Shown here: positions 10,233-41,723 of the stretch, in pieces
How positions within the stretch are numbered: the stretch's first letter is position 1
Layout of the letters: each line of letters opens with the position of its first letter
IMG/VR virus record: IMGVR_UViG_3300044983_000185
Span: 1-43,690 of that record
Reading direction: 5' to 3' (one strand)
Length of the DNA: 43,690 nt
Origin: a virus
Lineage: Duplodnaviria; Caudoviricetes
Made by a program: the position numbers and the translations under genes
The notes under the pieces: model-generated
What the model was told of the DNA's origin: nothing
Database searches by the model: none
What the model saw: the letters and a program-made list of their open reading frames with translations, nothing else

Positions 10233-10712
10233 CTATCGGGTGAACAGCCAGCCGAACAGGCCGGCGAGCATGAGTGCGGTTGACGTGCCGATGACGAGCG
10301 CATCGACGAATCGGCCGCGCCGGGCGTCGGGCAGGCCGCGCATCCGGCGCACGTCGCGGATGGCGCGCTGCACCTTCTGTTCGCGCGGTCGTACCTTGCT
10401 GCGACGCGGGTTCTTCTGATCGTTGTAGCGCGGCCGGGCGATGAAGATGACAATCGTTTCCAGCGTGAGCAGGAACCATTTCCAGCCGAGCCACCACGGC
10501 AACCGCAGCTCGAAGTACGCCGTTTTCAGGTCGTACCAGGGCTTCTCAATGCAGCCCTGGTGATGGCATGTTCCGGCGTGGCAGCGGTACCGGTTCGGCA
10601 GGCTCGTGCTCATCCCGGCGTATCCCCATTCGGTGCCGCGTCGCAGGTGCTTGCGGGTGCGGTAGGCGTAGATGCCGGGCTTGCGCCGGCGCGCCTTACG
10701 AAAGATCACCAT
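10233..10712 (-). CDS. GIY-YIG nuclease-like protein with C-terminal TM anchor
   Basis: GIYAY...GYAG...R...H...E...PRYN pattern; hydrophobic C-terminal helix. Confidence 0.7.
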   Translation of the reverse strand: MVIFRKARRRKPGIYAYRTRKHLRRGTEWGYAGMSTSLPNRYRCHAGTCHHQGCIEKPWYDLKTAYFELRLPWWLGWKWFLLTLETIVIFIARPRYNDQKNPRRSKVRPREQKVQRAIRDVRRMRGLPDARRGRFVDALVIGTSTALMLAGLFGWLFTR

Positions 10713-11050
10713 CGGAATGTCAGCAATCCGGACGGCAACGTGATCGCGTGCTTGCGCTCGCCGGTGTGTCGCCAGTCGAGTTCGCACCGGCCACGCTCGC
10801 CGGGTGCGCCGCAGATGCTCAACGCGCCCGTGGGGGGCGTGGACGGAGCAGGCTCCGTCCACGCCGTCGACAAGCCCGGGTAGGGCGCGGCCGGGCCGCA
10901 GCAGACGGTAGCGAGCGCAGATGTGCCGGTCCGGTCGATGTAGCTGACTGTGGATTCGTACTCCCACGGCAGGGTGACCGGCAACGGTTCGGCGCCGTCT
11001 TCCAGAAGGACTGAGTGCTGATGTGCGTAGCTGTGCCAGTATCGATACAC
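10706..11050 (-). CDS. Hypothetical Cys/His-containing protein
   Basis: SD AGGGGG then GTG at 11050; overlaps the next gene. Confidence 0.55.
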   Translation of the reverse strand: MYRYWHSYAHQHSVLLEDGAEPLPVTLPWEYESTVSYIDRTGTSALATVCCGPAAPYPGLSTAWTEPAPSTPPTGALSICGAPGERGRCELDWRHTGERKHAITLPSGLLTFRW

Positions 11051-11129
11051 GTCAACCCCCTGAAGATCGAAGCCCGGTCGCAGTGCTCGTGCACCACGAC
11101 CGGGGATGGACCTAGTATTGCAGGTCCGG

Positions 11130-11291
11130 CTACGTAATGGCAATACGTAGATGGGGCGGAGTTTCGAAGCCTTCCGGCTCTCGCACCTCGAAACCGAGCC
11201 GGCGTAGTCCTTCTGCCTCCCGGCGCGCACGGCGCACGGTGCGCGCCCACGTGGGGATGCGCGCGTCCCCGAACTTCGTGGGTTTGTCCAT
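11130..11291 (-). CDS. Possible small protein (53 aa)
   Basis: GGAG SD five nt before ATG 11291; lies in a hairpin-rich region and may be spurious. Confidence 0.35.
   Translation of the reverse strand: MDKPTKFGDARIPTWARTVRRARREAEGLRRLGFEVREPEGFETPPHLRIAIT
11132..11148. promoter_or_regulatory. Palindromic operator ACGTA-N7-TACGT, copy 1
   Basis: 15/17 identical to 11346-11362; upstream of the leftward -10 AATACT (11114-11119). Confidence 0.6.
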
Positions 11292-11345
11292 CCGATCTCC
11301 AAACATGCAACTTGCACGGTTTCGTGCCATCGTACTTGACGTATG

Positions 11346-11362
11346 ACGTAATGGGCATACGT
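11346..11362. promoter_or_regulatory. Palindromic operator ACGTA-N7-TACGT, copy 2
   Basis: Just upstream of -10 TAGGGT (11367-11372) of the FtsK-like gene. Confidence 0.6.
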
Positions 11363-11379
11363 GGAGTAGGGTTGATCAG

Positions 11380-13212
11380 GTGCCCCAGAACACCGCACCC
11401 CTGATCAGCTGGCGCGGCGAGCGCGCCGCCGTGCCGCTACCGCTGCGCGTCCTCGGCCGCTACTTCATCACCGGCCAGGCGCTGCACGGCGCAGGCGACA
11501 ACGCGACCTTCCTGCATCGCGCGACGATCGACTACCGCGCGCGCCCATACCTGAAGCTGACCGGACCGAAGTGGCAACGCCTCGCGCGCCGACATGCCGC
11601 CTTCACCGGCCCGGCCACACTCCTGCTGGCCGCGCCGTGGCACGGCCTCCTGCCGCTCGCGATCTACATGGTGGCGCTGGCGGTGGCCGCGGTGGGAGCG
11701 CTCTCCCGCGTTCTGTGGCTGGCCGTGCGCGGCTTCCGGCGCAACCGGCAATGGATCGATCCTGCGGCAAAGGTGGCGTGCTCGATCCTCGGTATCCGGT
11801 ACACGCGCCGCGCCGGCCGCAGAATGATCGACCTCCCGCCCGGATGGGGTGAGGCGCGCGAGGACGGCGCGGCGGTGCGCGAGGTAGTCCGCGTGCACCT
11901 TCCGGCTGGCACGCCGTTGACCAAGTCGATCAAGGTCAACTTCGCTACGAACGTAGGGGGCCGGCTCGGCATCCCGAGCCCGGTCGGAGCGGAATGGTCG
12001 GAGTCCGGCGCTGCGCCGTTCGTCGACCTGGCCGCGGCGCCGGTACCGCCGCGCGTCGTCGACTGGCCGAGTATCGAGCGCGCCGTACGCCAGGCCGACG
12101 ACGAGATCATGATCGCGGGTCGCAACGCCTCCGGCCACCTCGTGGAGGTCAGCCTGGCTGAGGACGCCCCGCACTTCGGGCTGTCCGGTGCGTCCGGCAC
12201 CGGCAAGAGCGTGCTCGCTCGCGTCATGCTCGTACCCCGGGTGGCGTTCCGGGGCGACGGCCTGATCATCACCGACCCGAAGAAGTTCTCGCACTGGCGA
12301 TGGGCCGGCGGCGGCAAGGTGGACTCGCGTCGCATCCGCTATGCCTGGCGCACCGAGGAACTGCACGATGCCTGGCTGGAGATCGCGGCGGAGACGGCGC
12401 GCCGCATCGAGATGGACGAGGAGGATCTTGCGCAGCAGCGCCGGGTGTTCATCCTCGTGGAGGAGATCAACACGCAGACGAAGCGGTTGCAGCGGCACTG
12501 GCGCGCCGAGCGCAAGCGGATCATCGTGGCCGCGAAGCTCAAGCTTGCCGATGACCCGTACGCGGACATCGACCTGGGGGACCTGGATCCGCCCGTCCAG
12601 TCCCCCGCCATCGTGGCCATGCAAGAGGCGGTGGCCATGGGCCGTGAGCTCAAGATGCACGTCTTCGTGTGCGCACAGCGAATGTCCGCGAGCGTGTTCG
12701 GAGGCAACGGCGGTGACATCCGCGAGAGCTTCCAGGGTGGCCGCTTCATCGCGAAGTGGGACAGGAAGCTCTGGAAGATGCTCGTGGACACGCTCGACTA
12801 CGTGGCCTGTCCGTCCGGGCCGCGTGGCATCTGGGGCGTGGCCAGAGGTGACAGCTTTGACATCCTGCGTGTCCCGTTCCTGTCCGAGCCGGCCGCGCTG
12901 AAGCTGGTCACGGACATGGCTGTCCCTGTCCACGGTCCGGTGCTCGGCCAGCAGGCGGACGGCTGGCAGCTGGACATGTCCGTGTCCGGGCCGGCGCTGA
13001 CGTCCGCGGTCACCCTGGCCGCTGCGCTGGACATGTTGCCCGGACAGGACGGTCCGCGCGCGCTCACGCTGGAAGGCCTGCGGACGGCGGCGAAGCGGCC
13101 GGGCTTCCCGGAGCCGCTACCGAAACCGGACGGCGCTGAGTATGGGCGCTCCGAAGCCAGGCTGTACGACCTCGGAGCGCTGCTGGACTGGCGTGAGTCG
13201 GGACTGGCCTAG
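11380..13212 (+). CDS. FtsK/SpoIIIE-family DNA translocase, TraB-like (610 aa)
   Basis: N-terminal TM helices; Walker A GASGTGKS; Walker B ILVEE; GRELKMHVFVCAQR; C-terminal HTH-like segment. Confidence 0.85.
   Translation: MPQNTAPLISWRGERAAVPLPLRVLGRYFITGQALHGAGDNATFLHRATIDYRARPYLKLTGPKWQRLARRHAAFTGPATLLLAAPWHGLLPLAIYMVALAVAAVGALSRVLWLAVRGFRRNRQWIDPAAKVACSILGIRYTRRAGRRMIDLPPGWGEAREDGAAVREVVRVHLPAGTPLTKSIKVNFATNVGGRLGIPSPVGAEWSESGAAPFVDLAAAPVPPRVVDWPSIERAVRQADDEIMIAGRNASGHLVEVSLAEDAPHFGLSGASGTGKSVLARVMLVPRVAFRGDGLIITDPKKFSHWRWAGGGKVDSRRIRYAWRTEELHDAWLEIAAETARRIEMDEEDLAQQRRVFILVEEINTQTKRLQRHWRAERKRIIVAAKLKLADDPYADIDLGDLDPPVQSPAIVAMQEAVAMGRELKMHVFVCAQRMSASVFGGNGGDIRESFQGGRFIAKWDRKLWKMLVDTLDYVACPSGPRGIWGVARGDSFDILRVPFLSEPAALKLVTDMAVPVHGPVLGQQADGWQLDMSVSGPALTSAVTLAAALDMLPGQDGPRALTLEGLRTAAKRPGFPEPLPKPDGAEYGRSEARLYDLGALLDWRESGLA
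12759..13046. repeat. Cluster of 13 GGACA/TGTCC motifs in the 3' part of the FtsK-like gene
   Basis: Hand count. Confidence 0.75.
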
Positions 13213-13469
13213 ATGACTTCGGTGACGCTGCGGGGGAAGTAGGCGCGACCGGACGGAACGGGGCGGAAGCGCTCGGTCTCGCGGATCTCGCGCCAGAGCT
13301 CGCCACGGGTGATGACCGTTCCCGACGGCATCACCGTGTAGATCTCGGCGTCGCGCTCGGCGTCCATCTCCAGAGCCACACCGTGGAGGATGTCCATGAT
13401 CGTTGTCTGGCCGGTGGCAACGGCGATGTGCTCGGCGGTGGTGAGTTCGCGTCCCAGTTCGTTCGTCAT
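13209..13469 (-). CDS. Hypothetical protein, leaderless
   Basis: TTGACG-N17-TATACT-N6-ATG. Confidence 0.75.
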   Translation of the reverse strand: MTNELGRELTTAEHIAVATGQTTIMDILHGVALEMDAERDAEIYTVMPSGTVITRGELWREIRETERFRPVPSGRAYFPRSVTEVI

Positions 13470-13475
13470 GAACCC

Positions 13476-13504
13476 AGTATAGCAAGCCCACTTCGAGCCG
13501 TCAA
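13476..13504 (-). promoter_or_regulatory. Sigma70/HrdB-type promoter
   Basis: TTGACG-N17-TATACT. Confidence 0.8.
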
Positions 13505-13628
13505 CCTGGCACTGACCTAGGCCACCGGAGGGGTGTATGCGCTGGTGAAGCGCTGTCCGGCCGGTCGCCTAGGTCAGGGTCGGATAGGCTGGGCGAGCTT
13601 GAGGAAAGTCCGCGCGTGGGGCGCAAAG

Positions 13629-13661
13629 CAAAAGCCCGGACCATCATGGTCCGGGCTTTTG
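13629..13661. terminator. Bidirectional terminator-like hairpin
   Basis: CAAAAGCCCGGACCAT-C-ATGGTCCGGGCTTTTG perfect inverted repeat. Confidence 0.75.
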
Positions 13662-13713
13662 TGACCTTTAGCAAGGCCGTGGCCCGGGGCACAAGGCCAC
13701 GGGCCAAGATTTT

Positions 13714-13965
13714 TTAGACCGCGGTATAGAACGCCTGGTTACGCAGGGTCTGGCCTGCGTAGGGAGTGCCGATGGGGGCGATGAAGTCGCCGTAGCGGAC
13801 TGCGAGGATGTCGGCCCGAACCAGCGCCCGCAGGCTGTTGAGGTTGGCGCCCGCGGTGCGAGCGGTGTACTCGCTGATCTCGTTGTTCTCCGCGGTCAGC
13901 ATGAGCGGGAGGACCTTGAACAGGGTGGCCGTCTGGGTGCTGGTCAGGTTCTCCGTCTTCATCAT
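13714..13965 (-). CDS. Hypothetical protein, leaderless
   Basis: ggccttgcTATACT-N6-ATG. Confidence 0.75.
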   Translation of the reverse strand: MMKTENLTSTQTATLFKVLPLMLTAENNEISEYTARTAGANLNSLRALVRADILAVRYGDFIAPIGTPYAGQTLRNQAFYTAV

Positions 13966-13999
13966 GGATCAAGTATAGCAAGGCCGTGGAGACAGGCGC

Positions 14000-14030
14000 A
14001 AGGCCCCGGATCAAAATCTTCCGGGGCCTT
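14000..14030. terminator. Hairpin downstream of the DUF2637-like gene
   Basis: AAGGCCCCGGA/TCCGGGGCCTT. Confidence 0.6.
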
Positions 14031-14062
14031 AGCATGCACTTGCTAAGGCAAGTAAAGAAAGT

Positions 14063-14911
14063 TCACTCTCGCCCGGCGCCGGACACTGGCGTGTCCGTGA
14101 CCGTGGCCAGCCAGCGGCGCGCCGTCCGCGTGGACACGCCGAAGTGCGCGGCGGACAGCTGCACCATGTCCGCGCGGGACAGGGCGGACGGGTCCCACGC
14201 CGCTGCCATGTCCGCGAACTCCTGAGGGACGGACGTCCCAGGCGCTGTCCGTGTCCGCCTCGGCAACGGCGCGGACAGCGTGGACAGGTGCGCCTGCGCC
14301 TCGTCCGCGAGTTGCTTGCCGACCGTGGACAGCGCGTCCTCGTAGCCCTGTGTCCACGCGTCCAGATCGCTGGCCGGCCGCGTGACAGTGATGTCCGTGT
14401 CTGCACCGGCGGACAGGTCGAGTCGGACAGGATCCGTGTCCGGCGCCGTGAGGCTGTTGAGGCGCATCTGCGCTTCGTCTGGCGTCATGGCCGGACGCGT
14501 GACATGTCCGCGGACACGCGTGGACAGAATCAGGCCGGTGGCCATGATGGCCATACCGTCGATGGCCAGAGGGCCGAGGAAGCTGACCGCGGTCAGTTGT
14601 CCACGGCTGTGCATGAGGTCGTGCAGGTGTGTCCAGCTGACCACCATGGCCATGCCTCCGACGGCCAGGCAGCCGAGCCAGCGCCAGGCCTGGAACATCC
14701 GCGCGGACGACCACCGCGGACTGACGAACATCTCGATCGCCAGCAGCACGAGGATCGGCCAGCCTGCGGCCATCACCTTGTCGAGCGTGTCCACGGCCGC
14801 GCCGCGGGTGCGGTAGGTGTCCGCGAGGTTGCCGGCCACGCTCAAGCCGGCGCCCACGAGCAGGGACACGTACGCGACCGCGCCTGTCCAGAGCTTTCCG
14901 ATCTTGGTCAT
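14063..14911 (-). CDS. DUF2637/SpdA-like membrane protein with C-terminal HTH
   Basis: Four TM helices with SVAGN, AGWP, VSWTHL and GPLAIDG motifs; C-terminal AHFGVSTRTARRWL. Confidence 0.8.
   Translation of the reverse strand: MTKIGKLWTGAVAYVSLLVGAGLSVAGNLADTYRTRGAAVDTLDKVMAAGWPILVLLAIEMFVSPRWSSARMFQAWRWLGCLAVGGMAMVVSWTHLHDLMHSRGQLTAVSFLGPLAIDGMAIMATGLILSTRVRGHVTRPAMTPDEAQMRLNSLTAPDTDPVRLDLSAGADTDITVTRPASDLDAWTQGYEDALSTVGKQLADEAQAHLSTLSAPLPRRTRTAPGTSVPQEFADMAAAWDPSALSRADMVQLSAAHFGVSTRTARRWLATVTDTPVSGAGRE
14081..14889. repeat. Cluster of 26 GGACA/TGTCC motifs inside the DUF2637-like gene
   Basis: Hand count; 20 of them within 14081-14526. Confidence 0.85.
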
Positions 14912-14913
14912 CG

Positions 14914-15090
14914 TCAGATCTCCTCTCCCTGCGCCTCGTCTGCCTCGCGGTACTCGGCCAGCACGCCGAGCGCGTCATACAGGGCGCGGGCGCCCTCGAA
15001 CTCGTGGATCTCGCCGGTCGCCTCGTCCTTGAGCGTGACGGTCCGGTGGTCCTCGCTGATCGTGATCACGTACCGCTCGTCGCTACCCAT
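14914..15090 (-). CDS. Small acidic hypothetical protein
   Basis: Coupled to the upstream stop; high-GC3 codons. Confidence 0.65.
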   Translation of the reverse strand: MGSDERYVITISEDHRTVTLKDEATGEIHEFEGARALYDALGVLAEYREADEAQGEEI

Positions 15091-15440
15091 CACGCACGCT
15101 CCCAGGAGTCCGAGAACTCGTTGATCGTGCAGCGGAAAGTCTGGTCGCCGGTCATGACGCCCTCGACCCACACCCCGTTGATCGAGGTGACCTTGCCCAT
15201 GCACCAGTCGGGTTGGATCGTGCTGCGGTACCAGGCGCCGATCTCGGCGCTGGCCTGCGCAGGGACGTGGTAGTCGAGTTCGGCGGGAATGTCGTAGCGG
15301 AACTCCGCCTCGGCCTCGGCCGCGAGCAGCTTGCCCCACTCGATCGGCGCGGCGGTGACGTCGCGCCACATGCCGACGCTGGCGCCGGTCTTCTCGTCGA
15401 TGCGGTCGATCAGGTTGAGGTGCGTCGCGTTCGCCATCAT
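15090..15440 (-). CDS. Hypothetical protein, leaderless
   Basis: TTGCGT-N16-TATAGT-N6-ATG. Confidence 0.75.
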   Translation of the reverse strand: MMANATHLNLIDRIDEKTGASVGMWRDVTAAPIEWGKLLAAEAEAEFRYDIPAELDYHVPAQASAEIGAWYRSTIQPDWCMGKVTSINGVWVEGVMTGDQTFRCTINEFSDSWERA

Positions 15441-15475
15441 GAGTCCACTATAGCAGGTCCATGCGGAGACGCAAG

Positions 15476-15506
15476 AGGCGCGGCCCCGGAGAAGTGGGCC
15501 GCGCCT
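15476..15506. terminator. Hairpin ending the SSB operon
   Basis: AGGCGCGGCCC/GGGCCGCGCCT. Confidence 0.6.
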
Positions 15507-15517
15507 TGATCTTGAAA

Positions 15518-15718
15518 TCAGCGATGCCGGAACGCGCGTTGCAGCGTCGGGGGGTTGAAGCTGCGCGTGACCTTCTCCGGCCCCGGCGGCTTCCACTCGT
15601 GCCGCCCGGGGCCGGTCTCATGCCTGCCGGGCACGCGCTCGGGCGGCAGCGCGAACGCGAGACAGGCGAACGCCGTGAACGCCATAAGCGCGAGCAGCAG
15701 CCAGGTCGTCGCGGTCAT
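15518..15718 (-). CDS. Small protein with N-terminal TM
   Basis: MTATTWLLLALMAF...; coupled to the upstream gene. Confidence 0.6.
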   Translation of the reverse strand: MTATTWLLLALMAFTAFACLAFALPPERVPGRHETGPGRHEWKPPGPEKVTRSFNPPTLQRAFRHR

Positions 15719-23579: not shown

Positions 23580-23894
23580 GTGGCCTATGACGAGCAGTAC
23601 GACAATCCGAAGCTCTGGCAGTTGGTCGGCATCCTCCCCGGCAAGGACTACGCCTCGGTGCCCACGGAGGAACCGGTCGTGTGGGTGCGCAGGACGCTTG
23701 ACGGCGGCAAGCTCGCCTACGACTGTGGCGAATACCGGATCATCGGCCGGCTCGTCGGCAAGGCCGACCGGCGCTCGTACACCGTGCACCGACTCGGCTA
23801 TGAGTTGCCGCTGTCGTTCTACACCCACCTCAGGGACGCCCAAGCCCGCGCGGTCAAGAATGCGGCCGGCAAGGACAGGATGCACCTCGCATGA
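23580..23894 (+). CDS. Hypothetical protein
   Basis: SD AGGAGG; coupled to the helicase. Confidence 0.7.
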   Translation: MAYDEQYDNPKLWQLVGILPGKDYASVPTEEPVVWVRRTLDGGKLAYDCGEYRIIGRLVGKADRRSYTVHRLGYELPLSFYTHLRDAQARAVKNAAGKDRMHLA

Positions 23895-25168
23895 TCACTC
23901 TGACCGACGAGCAGCAAGACGCTGTGACGCTCGTGCGCGAATGGTACGAGGGCACCCAGCGCGGCCTGAAGCCGAACTGGGCAAAGGATCCTTTCCGCCT
24001 TTTCGGCCCGGCCGGCACCGGCAAGACGACACTCGCCCGGCACATCGCGAACGCAATCGGACTGGACGACGTCATGTTCGGCGCGTACACCGGCAAGGCG
24101 GCTGCCGTGCTGACCAGCAAGGGCGTACCCGCCACGACGATTCACTCCGCGATCTACAAACCAGCGTGGAATGCGGAGATGCGGGCGGAATGGATGCGGT
24201 TGCAGGATCGGCTTGCCGACCTGGAGAGCGAGCCCGCGCCAAGTGGCATGGACATTGCCGATCTTCAGTCGCTCCCAGGTCGCATCGCCGAGCTCGAAGC
24301 AGCCATGCGGCGCCCGTGCTTCGTGCTGAACGAAGACAGCGAGTGGGCGCGCGCCGACCTGATCGTCCTTGACGAGGTCAGCATGGTGGATGACGCCATG
24401 GCCGCGGATATCGAGAGCTTCGGCGTGCCGGTGCTCGTGCTCGGCGATCCGGCGCAGTTGCCGCCGGTCGGCGGCGGCGGCCACTACACGCGCGACACGC
24501 CGGACGTGCTGCTTGAGCAGATTCACCGTCAGGCCCTGGAATCGCCGGTGCTCGAGCTCGCCACCAGAATCCGGCTGTCGCGTGATGCCGGCCTCGGCGT
24601 GCGTGACGATGAGCGGGAGATCGCTTCGGTCAGCCGGGCGATGGCCACGGATCAGGTGCTCTGCTGGCGCAACGCCACCCGCTGGAAGCTGACGGAGCGG
24701 ATCCGCGCGAAGCTCGGGCGTGCGTCCGGCAAGGTCGACATCGGCGACCGGATCATGTGCCTGGTCAACAACAAGCGGGATCTCGGCGTACTCAACGGCC
24801 AGCAATTCGAGGTGCTCGACATCAAGGACGACTGGACGCTGCTGCTGCGGGATGACGTCGGCATCGATCGGTGGATCGAGGTGGAGCCGGCCGGGTTCGC
24901 AGGTCTGGAGGGTGAGGCGAATCTGAAGAACATGCGGTTGTTCCGCGGCAGTGTGATGGCCGCGACGTTCGCGAACGTGATCACTACGCACAAGGCGCAG
25001 GGCAGTGAGTGGGGGTCGGTCTACATCGTCGACGAGACACCGGCCATGTTCGCGATGAACGCGCGGCGCGAGGGTGAGGCAGCGGCGACCGCGGAGTGCC
25101 GCCGCTGGCTGTATACGGCGACAACGCGGGCGCGCGACTCGGTGACCTTGAGCAGGATGCGTGGTTGA
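23891..25168 (+). CDS. SF1B RecD/Dda-like helicase
   Basis: GPAGTGKT, TGKAA, DEVSM, GDPAQL, TTHKAQGSEW, LYTATTRA motifs. Confidence 0.93.
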   Translation: MITLTDEQQDAVTLVREWYEGTQRGLKPNWAKDPFRLFGPAGTGKTTLARHIANAIGLDDVMFGAYTGKAAAVLTSKGVPATTIHSAIYKPAWNAEMRAEWMRLQDRLADLESEPAPSGMDIADLQSLPGRIAELEAAMRRPCFVLNEDSEWARADLIVLDEVSMVDDAMAADIESFGVPVLVLGDPAQLPPVGGGGHYTRDTPDVLLEQIHRQALESPVLELATRIRLSRDAGLGVRDDEREIASVSRAMATDQVLCWRNATRWKLTERIRAKLGRASGKVDIGDRIMCLVNNKRDLGVLNGQQFEVLDIKDDWTLLLRDDVGIDRWIEVEPAGFAGLEGEANLKNMRLFRGSVMAATFANVITTHKAQGSEWGSVYIVDETPAMFAMNARREGEAAATAECRRWLYTATTRARDSVTLSRMRG

Positions 25169-25199: not shown

Positions 25200-25373
25200 A
25201 TGACGAAGACGAGCAAGGCCGCCAAGGTTGTCCGCCCCGCCACCACGAACGGCAAGATCAGCGCTTTCTCGATGGTCGCGTCCCTGGTCAAGAGCGGTGT
25301 TCCGGCCGCGAAGATCGCTCTGATGGCCCAGCTCAGTGACGCGGAGCGTGCCCAGATCGAGGCTATGGCGTGA
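25200..25373 (+). CDS. Small basic protein, leaderless
   Basis: TTGACG-N17-TATAGT-N6-ATG. Confidence 0.7.
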   Translation: MTKTSKAAKVVRPATTNGKISAFSMVASLVKSGVPAAKIALMAQLSDAERAQIEAMA

Positions 25374-26470
25374 AGGCGCTCGACCTGTTCGCGGGAGCGG
25401 GAGGCTGGGACGTCGCGGCACGACGCCTCGGCATCCCCGTCGATCGTGTCGAGATCTGGGCGCCCGCCGTCGCCACAGCCGCGGCGGCGGGAATGCCCAC
25501 CCTCCATGACGATGTGACGACATACTCCACAACCCTGGGGCAGCACCAGATCCACCTGGGTTCGCCCTCCTGCAAGCGATACAGCATGGCTGGCAACGGC
25601 GCAGGACGACGTGCGCTCGATCAGGTGCTGCACGGTGTCGACGTCTACCGGCGGGGCGGGCGGATGACGCATGATCAGGCCGTAGCGCTGATCGGCGACG
25701 CAGACGCCGCGCTCACCCTGGAACCTTTGCGTATCGCGCTGGAGGGTGAACCAGCCTACATTGCATGGGAGCAGGTCCCCGCCGTGCGTCCCGTCTGGGA
25801 GGCGTGCGCGGAGGTGCTCGCCGAATACGGCTATTCGGTAGTCACCGGCGTACTGAACGCCGAACAGTACGGAGTGCCACAGACAAGACGCCGCGCCATC
25901 CTCATGGCTCGGCGTGACGGGCAGCGCGCTGGTCTCCCCGTACCGACGCACAGCCGCTTCTGGTCGCGTGATCCGAGACGGCTCGATCAGGGCGTCAAGT
26001 CGTGGATTTCCATGGCGGAAGCGCTGGGATGGGGCATGACGGAGCGCCCGAGCATGACTGTGTGCGGCGGAGGGACCGAAACCGGGGGAGCCGAGCCGTT
26101 CGGCAACGCGGCTCGGGCGGGGATCCGGCGCGAACTGGAGGCCGGTCGCTGGGCATTGCGCAACAACAACACGGAGCATGCCTGCGAACGAGAACTCGAT
26201 CAGCCGGCGGGAACGGTTCAACGCTCGAACTACTCCGCTCCTGGCCAGCCAGGGCAGGCGGCAACCGAGCGTGGACGGACGACGCGGGAACTCGATCAGC
26301 CGTCCATTGCACGAGGTATCCGCGTTGATCCACTGGAGGCCGCCTGTCTCCAGACCTTTCCGGCAGATTATCCGTGGCAGGGCAACAAGGGTCAGGTGTT
26401 TCAGCAGATCGGCAACGCCGTTCCGCCGGTTCTGGCTGAGGCTGTCCTGACGGCCCTGCTTCAGGCGTAG
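25370..26470 (+). CDS. C5 DNA cytosine methyltransferase
   Basis: DLFAGAGG, SPSC, EQV, YGVPQTRRR, LQTFP, QIGNAVPP motifs. Confidence 0.92.
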   Translation: MKALDLFAGAGGWDVAARRLGIPVDRVEIWAPAVATAAAAGMPTLHDDVTTYSTTLGQHQIHLGSPSCKRYSMAGNGAGRRALDQVLHGVDVYRRGGRMTHDQAVALIGDADAALTLEPLRIALEGEPAYIAWEQVPAVRPVWEACAEVLAEYGYSVVTGVLNAEQYGVPQTRRRAILMARRDGQRAGLPVPTHSRFWSRDPRRLDQGVKSWISMAEALGWGMTERPSMTVCGGGTETGGAEPFGNAARAGIRRELEAGRWALRNNNTEHACERELDQPAGTVQRSNYSAPGQPGQAATERGRTTRELDQPSIARGIRVDPLEAACLQTFPADYPWQGNKGQVFQQIGNAVPPVLAEAVLTALLQA

Positions 26471-40529: not shown

Positions 40530-40643
40530 GAGACCGGAGTGTTGAGGCCGTCGGGCGGGTGAACCCGGCGTTGCCATGGGCGCACGCGACAGGGCATCAC
40601 CAGTCCTGTCGAAGCGGAGGTTCAAGCCCTCCCGGTGTCACCA
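40530..40643 (+). ncRNA. tRNA-like RNA with encoded CCA (114 nt)
   Basis: GAGACCG/CGGTGTC-A-CCA; T arm GGAGG-TTCAAGC-CCTCC; -10 TATGAT six nt upstream. Confidence 0.7.
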
Positions 40644-40685
40644 CAACTTCAGATCTTCACTTCCTCGCAGAAAGCAGCCGAGGCT

Positions 40686-41723
40686 ATGGCCAGACCGTGT
40701 TATGTCACACGGGACCGGGTGCAATACACCCTGGACCAGGCGGATGTCTTCCGCTCGAACAAGCGCATCGACGACGCCATCGCCTCGGCCAGTGACGATC
40801 TCGAAGGTCTACTCAACCGGTATTTCTATCCCACGCTCGCGACGCGCTACCCGGATCCGTGGCGCCAGGTCCGCGGCGGCATTCTCTGGCTGGACAGCAA
40901 CGTCTACGAGATGGCGTCCGTGTCCACGCTCGTCGTGGACAGCGTGACATGGACAGTGAACACCGACTTCTACCTCGATCCGGAGGACGGCCCTCCGTAC
41001 ACGTCCATCCGGATCCCGCGGACATCGTCGCGGTCATGGCCGTCCGACGAGCGCAGCATCGTGGTCACCGGCCAGGTCGGCGCGTCCGCGCGGACAAAGG
41101 CGGCCGGCACGCTGTCCGCGTCCATGAACACGAGCGTGACAACGATGACCGTGTCCGACGCGTCCATGGTCGGTGTCGGTGACCTTGTCACGCTGGACAG
41201 TGAACGTGTCATCGTGACGGACAAGGCGCTGACCACGACCGGCACCACGATCACCGCGGACATGACCGGCCTGTCCAGCGGGACATCGGTCACGGTCGCG
41301 TCCGGCACCGCTGTCCACGCCGGCGAATACATCGTCATCGACAGCGAGCGGATCTTCGTCGAACAGGTCAACGGCAACACGCTGACCGTGAAGCGCGGCG
41401 CGCAGTCCAGTGCCCTGGCCGTGCACACTTCCGGCGCTACGGTGTACGCGCCGCGCGTCTGCACGGTCGAACGCGCGTGCACTGGCACGACCGCAGCGAG
41501 TCACAACAGCGCGATCACGCTGTACGTCAACGATCCGCCGGCGCTCGTGCAGGAGGCCGGTCTCGCGCTCGCGTTGAACAACCTGGAGCAGGGCAAGAAC
41601 GCGTACGCCCGCACGACCGGCACCGGGGAGATGCAGCAGGAGGCGACCGGCCGCGGCGTGAAGCAGATCGTGGAGGACTGCATCGCCCGGCACGGACGTG
41701 TCCGGATCGGCGCGACGTCATGA
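40686..41723 (+). CDS. Head-tail adaptor with inserted beta-repeat domains
   Basis: Position; IASASDDLEGLLNRYF; repeated DSERV/DSERI units. Confidence 0.75.
   Translation: MARPCYVTRDRVQYTLDQADVFRSNKRIDDAIASASDDLEGLLNRYFYPTLATRYPDPWRQVRGGILWLDSNVYEMASVSTLVVDSVTWTVNTDFYLDPEDGPPYTSIRIPRTSSRSWPSDERSIVVTGQVGASARTKAAGTLSASMNTSVTTMTVSDASMVGVGDLVTLDSERVIVTDKALTTTGTTITADMTGLSSGTSVTVASGTAVHAGEYIVIDSERIFVEQVNGNTLTVKRGAQSSALAVHTSGATVYAPRVCTVERACTGTTAASHNSAITLYVNDPPALVQEAGLALALNNLEQGKNAYARTTGTGEMQQEATGRGVKQIVEDCIARHGRVRIGATS
40892..41316. repeat. Cluster of 14 GGACA/TGTCC motifs inside the adaptor gene
   Basis: Hand count. Confidence 0.7.

Follow-up and report, generated by a model that had tools for sequence, protein, structure and literature searches.

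A dense array of GGACA words within a DUF2637-type gene of a phage genome and its likely reader

Genes and features of the locus

The DNA analysed here (the window, 43,690 nt) is a whole virus record of 43.7 kb with direct terminal repeats, a completeness rating of 100% and a GC content of 66%. Recognised genes encode a terminase, portal, protease, capsid, major tail protein, endolysin, helicases, a primase-polymerase and an exonuclease. Two convergent genes are central to this analysis: a gene of the DUF2637 family and a gene for an FtsK/TraB-like ATPase, here called the pump (Table 1). The sole cellular match of the DUF2637 gene family among GTDB genomes lies on a 6.4-kb contig from a Streptomyces MAG, and the pump's nearest annotated relatives come mostly from Streptomyces plasmids (44 of 51 records); these matches point to a filamentous actinomycete as the putative host. 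Searches by tblastn of 50,697 phage records found no cultured-phage relative of the DUF2637 protein and a single, distant one of the pump, in Streptomyces phage Dagobah. The Dagobah gene has an excess of ACGTC (13 copies), and its neighbourhood contains no match to the DUF2637 HMM.

The DUF2637 gene matches Pfam PF10935 (E 2.2e-7; 31.3 bits, above the cut-off of 22.8), and its coding frame is indicated by a GC3 of 0.88. Three overlapping ORFs (14043-14978, 14144-15124 and 14029-14406) were rejected, as the GC3 pattern shows each to be a shadow of the true frame. The AlphaFold model, built on a 30-sequence alignment, shows four long N-terminal helices, and three stretches of the protein reach a hydropathy of 1.6. 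The linker is rich in Thr and Asp. The final helix of the C-terminal domain is S260-T-R262-T-A-R-R266-W; R266 is invariant, and S260 and R262 are nearly so. This domain matches Pfam HTH_23 below the cut-off (E 0.006), and Foldseek returned no match at E <= 0.001 for either the full model or the domain alone. It is termed HTH-like on the basis of its modelled three-helix shape, the sub-threshold match and the conserved last helix. The original prediction for this DNA, made from its sequence, included a membrane protein with an HTH; the N-terminal helices with their hydrophobic stretches and the confident three-helix C-terminal domain agree with it.

The pump has a hydrophobic stretch near aa 81-117, a Walker A motif (GASGTGKS) and a small C-terminal domain, and it shares 25-30% identity with Streptomyces plasmid proteins. 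Its match to Pfam FtsK_SpoIIIE is under the cut-off (E 0.0027) and it does not match NCBIfam plasmid_TraB, a model which pJV1 TraB matches at 8e-236; the gene is therefore called FtsK/TraB-like only. Among the pump genes of loci L001-L054, two lineages about 28% identical to each other alternate at one locus in otherwise close phages, which suggests that modules have been exchanged.

Four copies of a 28-nt repeat are likely to be phage early promoters, one of them upstream of the operon containing the DUF2637 gene; one copy scores as TTGACG-17-TATACT. Two GC-rich hairpins between the convergent genes (13628-13661 and 14000-14030) are likely terminators. They are absent from the list produced by a consensus terminator scan.

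Table 1. Positions of the features discussed, in the window unless another record is named
Feature	Position	Strand or orientation	Remarks
FtsK/TraB-like ATPase (pump) gene	11380-13212	+	610 aa; convergent with DUF2637 gene
Second array	12759-13046	both orientations	13 of the 16 GGACA/TGTCC of the pump gene; precedes C-terminal domain
DUF2637 gene	14063-14911	-	282 aa; membrane domain, linker, C-terminal HTH; SpdB2-like layout
Main array	14081-14889	both orientations	26 GGACA/TGTCC
Predicted membrane domain (aa 1-134)	14510-14911	-	four long helices (AlphaFold); conserved among relatives
Linker (aa 135-229)	14225-14509	-	poorly conserved; model confidence partly low
Three-helix HTH-like domain (aa 230-272)	14096-14224	-	pLDDT about 95
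28-nt repeat, four copies	11100-11127, 13462-13489, 13958-13985, 15433-15460		TATA(C/G)T-type -10 box on - strand
C5 cytosine methyltransferase gene	25370-26470		adjoins RecD-like helicase gene at 23891-25168
Third array	40635-41723	+	15 GGACA/TGTCC; 362-aa gene between capsid and major tail genes
Pump-ATPase relative, short	L099:2547-3476 (Streptomyces phage Dagobah)		28% identity
Plasmid array genes	L101:5597-6694 (pWTY27), L102:666-1781 (pJV1), L103:5361-6116 (pSN22), L105, L106, L111-L116		

Word arrays in the window and its relatives

The main array consists of exactly 26 copies of one 5-bp word (12 GGACA and 14 TGTCC on the + strand), 20 of which lie within 450 bp. The copies occupy five of the six frame/orientation classes of the gene. 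The recount is identical to the original one in number, clustering, orientation and spread over frames. The base before the word is mostly C or T (CGGACA 15, TGGACA 9, GGGACA 2), and the gene additionally contains 16 GGCCA/TGGCC.

Base composition predicts 1.6 copies (3.0 at the genome average), which fits the earlier expectation of about two. This null was dropped as too lenient, and protein-preserving nulls were used instead. With the protein fixed and codons drawn from the other genes of the window, 6.3 +/- 2.1 copies are expected (maximum 15 in 10,000 trials); synonymous shuffling within the gene gives 10.6 +/- 2.3 (maximum 19 in 10,000). The excess is about 4-fold, with a z of about 10. 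Because it outlives both the protein-preserving and the synonymous-shuffle nulls, DNA-level selection in the main array is supported. Such selection had been proposed at the outset, with synonymous codon shuffling named beforehand as a check that could refute it.

It is very unlikely that the array is a neutral by-product of slippage, gene conversion or a Thr/Asp/Ser-rich linker, or a methylation target. Fixing the protein does lift the expectation from 1.6 to 6.3, and the linkers are low in complexity. However, the excess persists outside the linker (11 words, 2.2 expected), both in the conserved membrane part (8 words, 2.3 expected) and in the HTH and tail (7 words, 1.8 expected). It occurs in both orientations and five frames and in two unrelated genes, and no tandem array accounts for it: the only TRF match within the gene is a 19-bp unit in two copies. 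The window does encode a C5 cytosine methyltransferase, but its gene has no match in any of the 10 array-bearing relatives (10/10) and the methyltransferase target was rejected on this ground.

Among 19 genes of the window, three have GGACA as their top 5-mer, namely the DUF2637 gene (z 10.4), the gene of the third array (z 8.5) and the pump gene (z 5.7). In the remaining 16 genes, the highest z of any 5-mer is 5.8. The pump gene has 16 words, with 4.9 expected (z 5.7-6.0), and its array includes two palindromic overlaps, GGACATGTCC/GGACATGT. This second array and the GGCCA variant were overlooked in the original prediction. The third array (15 words, 2.4 expected, z 8.5) is lineage-specific; the same gene has only 2-5 copies in all six relatives that possess it. 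Extra word patches are also seen in other records, near 3-5 kb and 26 kb in G006 and near 6-8 kb in G010.

Four scans gave 68 loci. Together with the window and after dropping 16 genes that are cut or short, 53 genes longer than 600 nt and reaching a stop codon were retained; removal of redundancy at >= 85% identity left 39. All 39 have a z of at least 5 for GGACA or GGCCA under a protein-preserving null in which the codon usage of the window is applied to every relative; the control words GGACC and GGGCA reach at most z 2.8. The shared core is GG(A/C)CA, with the forms CGGACA, TGGACA and the palindrome TGGCCA. In all ten related whole records, one of the two words, GGACA or GGCCA, reaches its highest or nearly highest count per kilobase at the DUF2637 gene, and a second peak usually lies at the pump gene. 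A pump gene of >= 800 nt is present at 22 of the 39 loci and shows an excess (z >= 4) at 21 of them, the exception being L012.

Autoregulation or nucleoid coating is a quite unlikely explanation. Here the HTH or a host nucleoid protein would repress or road-block two toxic membrane genes, or would compact or shield the DNA. The two genes in which the arrays lie are indeed transcribed; traB is probably toxic when unregulated, and SpdB2 makes membranes permeable (PMC4447253). Nucleoid proteins that read short words occur in Streptomyces, an example being Gbn on GATC (PMC9239103). GGNCA words are over-represented 1.1-1.7-fold genome-wide in all 11 records, and the third array sits in an unrelated structural gene. 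A host reader leaves unexplained, however, why words are private to an element and paired with that element's own HTH tail, and the upstream promoter-like repeats fall outside the array.

Selection for folding of mRNA or single-stranded DNA, acting on words in both orientations, is highly improbable. Compared with 60 synonymous shuffles within the gene, its 3' 468 nt have the more stable fold (z of -3.0 for RNA and -2.1 for DNA), but any word present in both orientations gives a modest folding gain, and folding does not need a single fixed word. The plasmid arrays described below are mostly one-directional (e.g. 15:1, 14:2 and 10:0). A structured RNA was rejected because the folding z is modest and the window contains no Rfam match.

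Candidate readers of the word

The word variant agrees between the DUF2637 gene and the pump gene (Spearman 0.81, n=22), and it does so inside each pump lineage (0.74 and 0.87). As a two-class trait, with a threshold of 0.3 chosen after the data were seen, it agrees in all 19 loci with enough words; three low-count loci were left out, and two of these (L045 and L050) disagree. The remainder of the locus shares the array's preference for one variant (rho 0.62, n=19); a genome-wide bias therefore contributes, and the agreement carries less weight. The two pump lineages have different C-termini, and their arrays sit in different parts of the gene.

The variant of the pump gene was mapped on trees of 21 rows (FastTree, 200 label shuffles). 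On the pump tree it needs 7 changes (shuffled mean 7.2, p 0.55), and on a tree of the pump C-terminus 6 (p 0.24). On the tree of the DUF2637 membrane domain it needs 5 changes (p 0.055), nearly as good as the 4 changes on the HTH tree (p 0.015). These counts suggest that the word within the pump gene tracks the HTH of the DUF2637 protein better than it tracks the pump's own protein.

This pattern bears on a clt-type loading site, in which the C-terminal domain of the pump would read the word and the arrays would load the pump on phage DNA. We regard this as unlikely. In its favour, the neighbouring pump gene has an array at 21 of 22 loci, the clt of pWTY27 can overlap the 3' end of a tra gene (PMC3583192), and 'LRTAA' is common to the pump C-termini of several GGACA-type loci in one of the pump lineages. 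Against it, the word is distributed at random on both pump trees and each pump lineage includes both variants. The main array is non-polar (14:12), whereas clt consists of direct repeats (PMC4447253, PMC3583192); no direct 7-9-bp repeat family is found among the 20 largest repeat families in 10400-15600. In L006/G006 the DUF2637 gene has 23 words (4.1 expected), and no pump was found by an HMM of 22 pump proteins in this record, which lacks terminal repeats and may be incomplete. Finally, the DUF2637 arrays of pWTY27 and pJV1 differ from clt in both word and place.

Within the HTH, the strongest association with the variant among 26 columns is at V250 and L268 (p about 1e-4, from rows that are not independent). 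The two positions are occupied by D and R, respectively, in most proteins of GGCCA type. At the V250 position, 18 of 23 proteins with D or N are of GGCCA type (L008 is among the five exceptions), and all 14 with other residues are of GGACA type; the association comes from about three clades. The near-invariant last helix of the HTH parallels the invariant GG-CA core. Independent pairs number one on well-supported branches and four on all branches, and the sign test is underpowered. With few clades and one well-supported independent pair, co-variation of HTH and word is suggestive and not proven. It had been put forward as a check; the HTH tree (p 0.015) speaks for it, while the small number of independent events and the membrane-domain tree (p 0.055) weaken it. 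Taken across the relatives, the C-terminal HTH of the DUF2637 protein is the likely reader of the word. The original suggestion that the encoded HTH may bind the array is favoured to this extent; the binding, and the tethering of the genome to the membrane proposed with it, are what we infer.

A centromere was also part of the original prediction. Plasmid and phage centromeres (parS/parC with ParB/ParR) comprise many copies of a short site. The array resembles them in this respect and could likewise be coated by one element-encoded protein. Unlike a centromere, it has no ParA-type ATPase (PF13614) in the window or four relatives (0/5 records; controls detected 14/14), and its putative binder is a predicted integral membrane protein. 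None of the ORFs scanned came up as a ParB-type centromere-binding protein. Neither a tyrosine integrase nor a serine recombinase was found in these five records (0/5 for each). The centromere claim is not sustained, and the same is true of a clt-like site in the strict sense, given the 14:12 orientation, the placement of the word off the tree of the pump and the different word and place of clt in plasmids. By the tests run, the array is neither clt nor a centromere.

Plasmid counterparts and proposed role

Putative SpdB2 homologues occur on actinophages according to PMC4447253, which cites the genome papers of phiC31 and VWB. We take phiC31 gp25, which has the same layout as the DUF2637 protein of the window, to be the homologue meant there. 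It gave tblastn matches in 41 plasmid records, many of them annotated as DUF2637. Eighteen DUF2637/spdB2-like genes from these records were compared with 27 control genes, eight of them tra-type. A private 6-mer reaches z >= 9 in 11 of the 18 and is rarely found around them; no control gene reaches this value (0/27, best 7.2). The other seven have a similar architecture but a weak array or none. The private words are GCGAAC, GTGAAC, GTGAGC and GCAGAA. G(T/C)GAAC accompanies the HTH tail 'R...TGWS..WVS' in five plasmid genes and GTGAGC accompanies 'QR...G(R/W)S.GWVA' in four; these two groups may simply be two clades.

In pWTY27, where clt has been mapped with the word TGACACC and one ORF is said to resemble SpdB2 (PMC3583192), GCGAAC occurs 16 times in the DUF2637 gene and TGACACC is confined to one 500-bp bin 3 kb away. 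The DUF2637 gene of pJV1, which we take to be the gene named spdB2, has 16 copies of GTGAGC; nine of the 11 clt words (CCGCACA) cluster just upstream of the operon. The DUF2637 gene of pSN22 has nine copies of its word. The annotated pSN22 gene (L103:5361-6444) lacks the HTH tail and its array runs on into the following kilobase; this record may contain a frameshift.

In three phiC31 gp25-type genes of similar architecture, the best z is 5.0-6.8, with a different word in each. CTGAGC occurs nine times in phiC31 gp25 (1.7 expected, z 5.9) and is not common to TG1 or Heather; gp25 was rejected as a test bed on account of this weak array and unshared word. Both the window family and the plasmid family match DUF2637 (4 of the 14 members of A2). 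No match of the DUF2637 protein of the window was found in Streptomyces plasmids by tblastn, and profile alignment of the two families is not significant (hhalign E 0.044); the link between them is one of a shared Pfam model and architecture.

The protein of the window resembles SpdB2 of pSVH1 (PMC4447253) in its DUF2637 match and the adjacent FtsK/TraB-like gene; SpdB2 has four predicted membrane helices, and the model of the window protein has four long helices, with three stretches that reach a hydropathy of 1.6. The DUF2637 genes of pWTY27, pJV1 and pSN22 have arrays comparable to that of the window gene. The window protein differs from the plasmid DUF2637 proteins in having a Thr/Asp-rich linker where they have an E/R-rich coiled coil. 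SpdB2 of pSVH1 is reported to bind double-stranded DNA non-specifically, citing Tiffert 2007, and the available text describes no array; SpdB2 is called key there and its DNA link to the translocation complex is given as speculative (PMC4447253).

SpdA2/sps of the Streptomyces plasmid pIJ101 is a known case in which the sites of a reader lie within the gene that encodes it (PMC4170104). There, too, a protein of a mobile element binds a motif inside its own coding sequence; the motif is tied to stability or spreading and was tested by synonymous recoding (PMC4170104). The sps motif, a single conserved 12-bp palindrome, occurs 1-3 times and has a small soluble protein as its reader (PMC4170104). 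In contrast, the word of the arrays has 5-6 bp, comes in 10-70 copies and differs from element to element, with a membrane protein as its putative reader. SpdA proteins are soluble, of 117-163 aa, with an N-terminal DNA-binding domain, whereas the protein of the window has 282 aa, a membrane-type N-terminus and a C-terminal HTH. The sps palindrome CGTCACGTGACG (PMC4170104) has no match in the window under two mismatches; at two mismatches there are three matches, with 7.8 expected by chance, none of them within the array. Identity with sps was rejected, the palindrome being absent from the array.

Like clt of pSVH1, pJV1 and pWTY27 (PMC4447253, PMC3583192), the array consists of short, clustered repeats that lie both beside and within an FtsK-like gene of a transfer module, and its word is specific to the element. 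clt comprises 4-9 direct repeats of 7-9 bp within 50-175 bp, is mostly non-coding and is read by the pump (PMC4447253, PMC3583192). The array, unlike clt, is non-polar, has a 5-6-bp word, extends over 810 bp and into a second gene, and does not follow the phylogeny of the pump. No published description of comparable arrays was found in the openly accessible literature; the available text of PMC11600335 mentions only clt and sps repeats.

We consider it probable that the predicted membrane protein docks on the 26 words of its gene through its own HTH and would thereby keep the DNA at the membrane, close to the pump. The HTH of the predicted membrane protein would read GG(A/C)CA. The protein would oligomerise, and HTH tails on flexible linkers would grip many short sites; specificity would arise from avidity, through the number of short, weak sites. 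Such oligomers may anchor phage DNA to the membrane in the vicinity of the predicted FtsK/TraB-like pump, and newly replicated phage DNA may in this way be moved or positioned across the hyphal cross-walls of a filamentous actinomycete host. Movement across hyphal cross-walls is the role proposed for SpdB2 homologues of actinophages (PMC4447253). Sites inside the gene of their reader would keep the two linked through recombination. We infer each of these steps beyond the array itself.

A broader proposal is more tentative, and we give it somewhat less than an even chance. DUF2637/SpdB2-type proteins may be sequence-specific membrane anchors for DNA, with a private 5-6-bp word in their own gene and a tuneable HTH, and may form a second cis system beside clt. 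Conjugative plasmids would use this system for intramycelial spreading. Phages without an integrase would have taken it over together with the pump, and their genomes could then pass through cross-walls without lysis and re-infection.

The arrays bear on the spreading of Streptomyces plasmids in the recipient mycelium and on the dealings of SpdB2 with DNA. They are concrete candidate sites in well-studied plasmids, and synonymous recoding can erase them; in earlier insertion or deletion mutants of DUF2637-type genes, protein and site would have been lost together. For phages, they suggest a way in which genomes could move from one hyphal compartment to another. They also offer a clear example of a protein linker shaped by DNA-level selection, and a putative code from HTH to word that can be read from sequence.

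The spacing of the words was pooled over 13 related GGACA-type loci. Same-orientation pairs are frequent at 6, 10-12, 20-22, 30-31 and 42 bp, a pattern that hints at helical phasing; TGTCC-NN-GGACA was counted 13 times.
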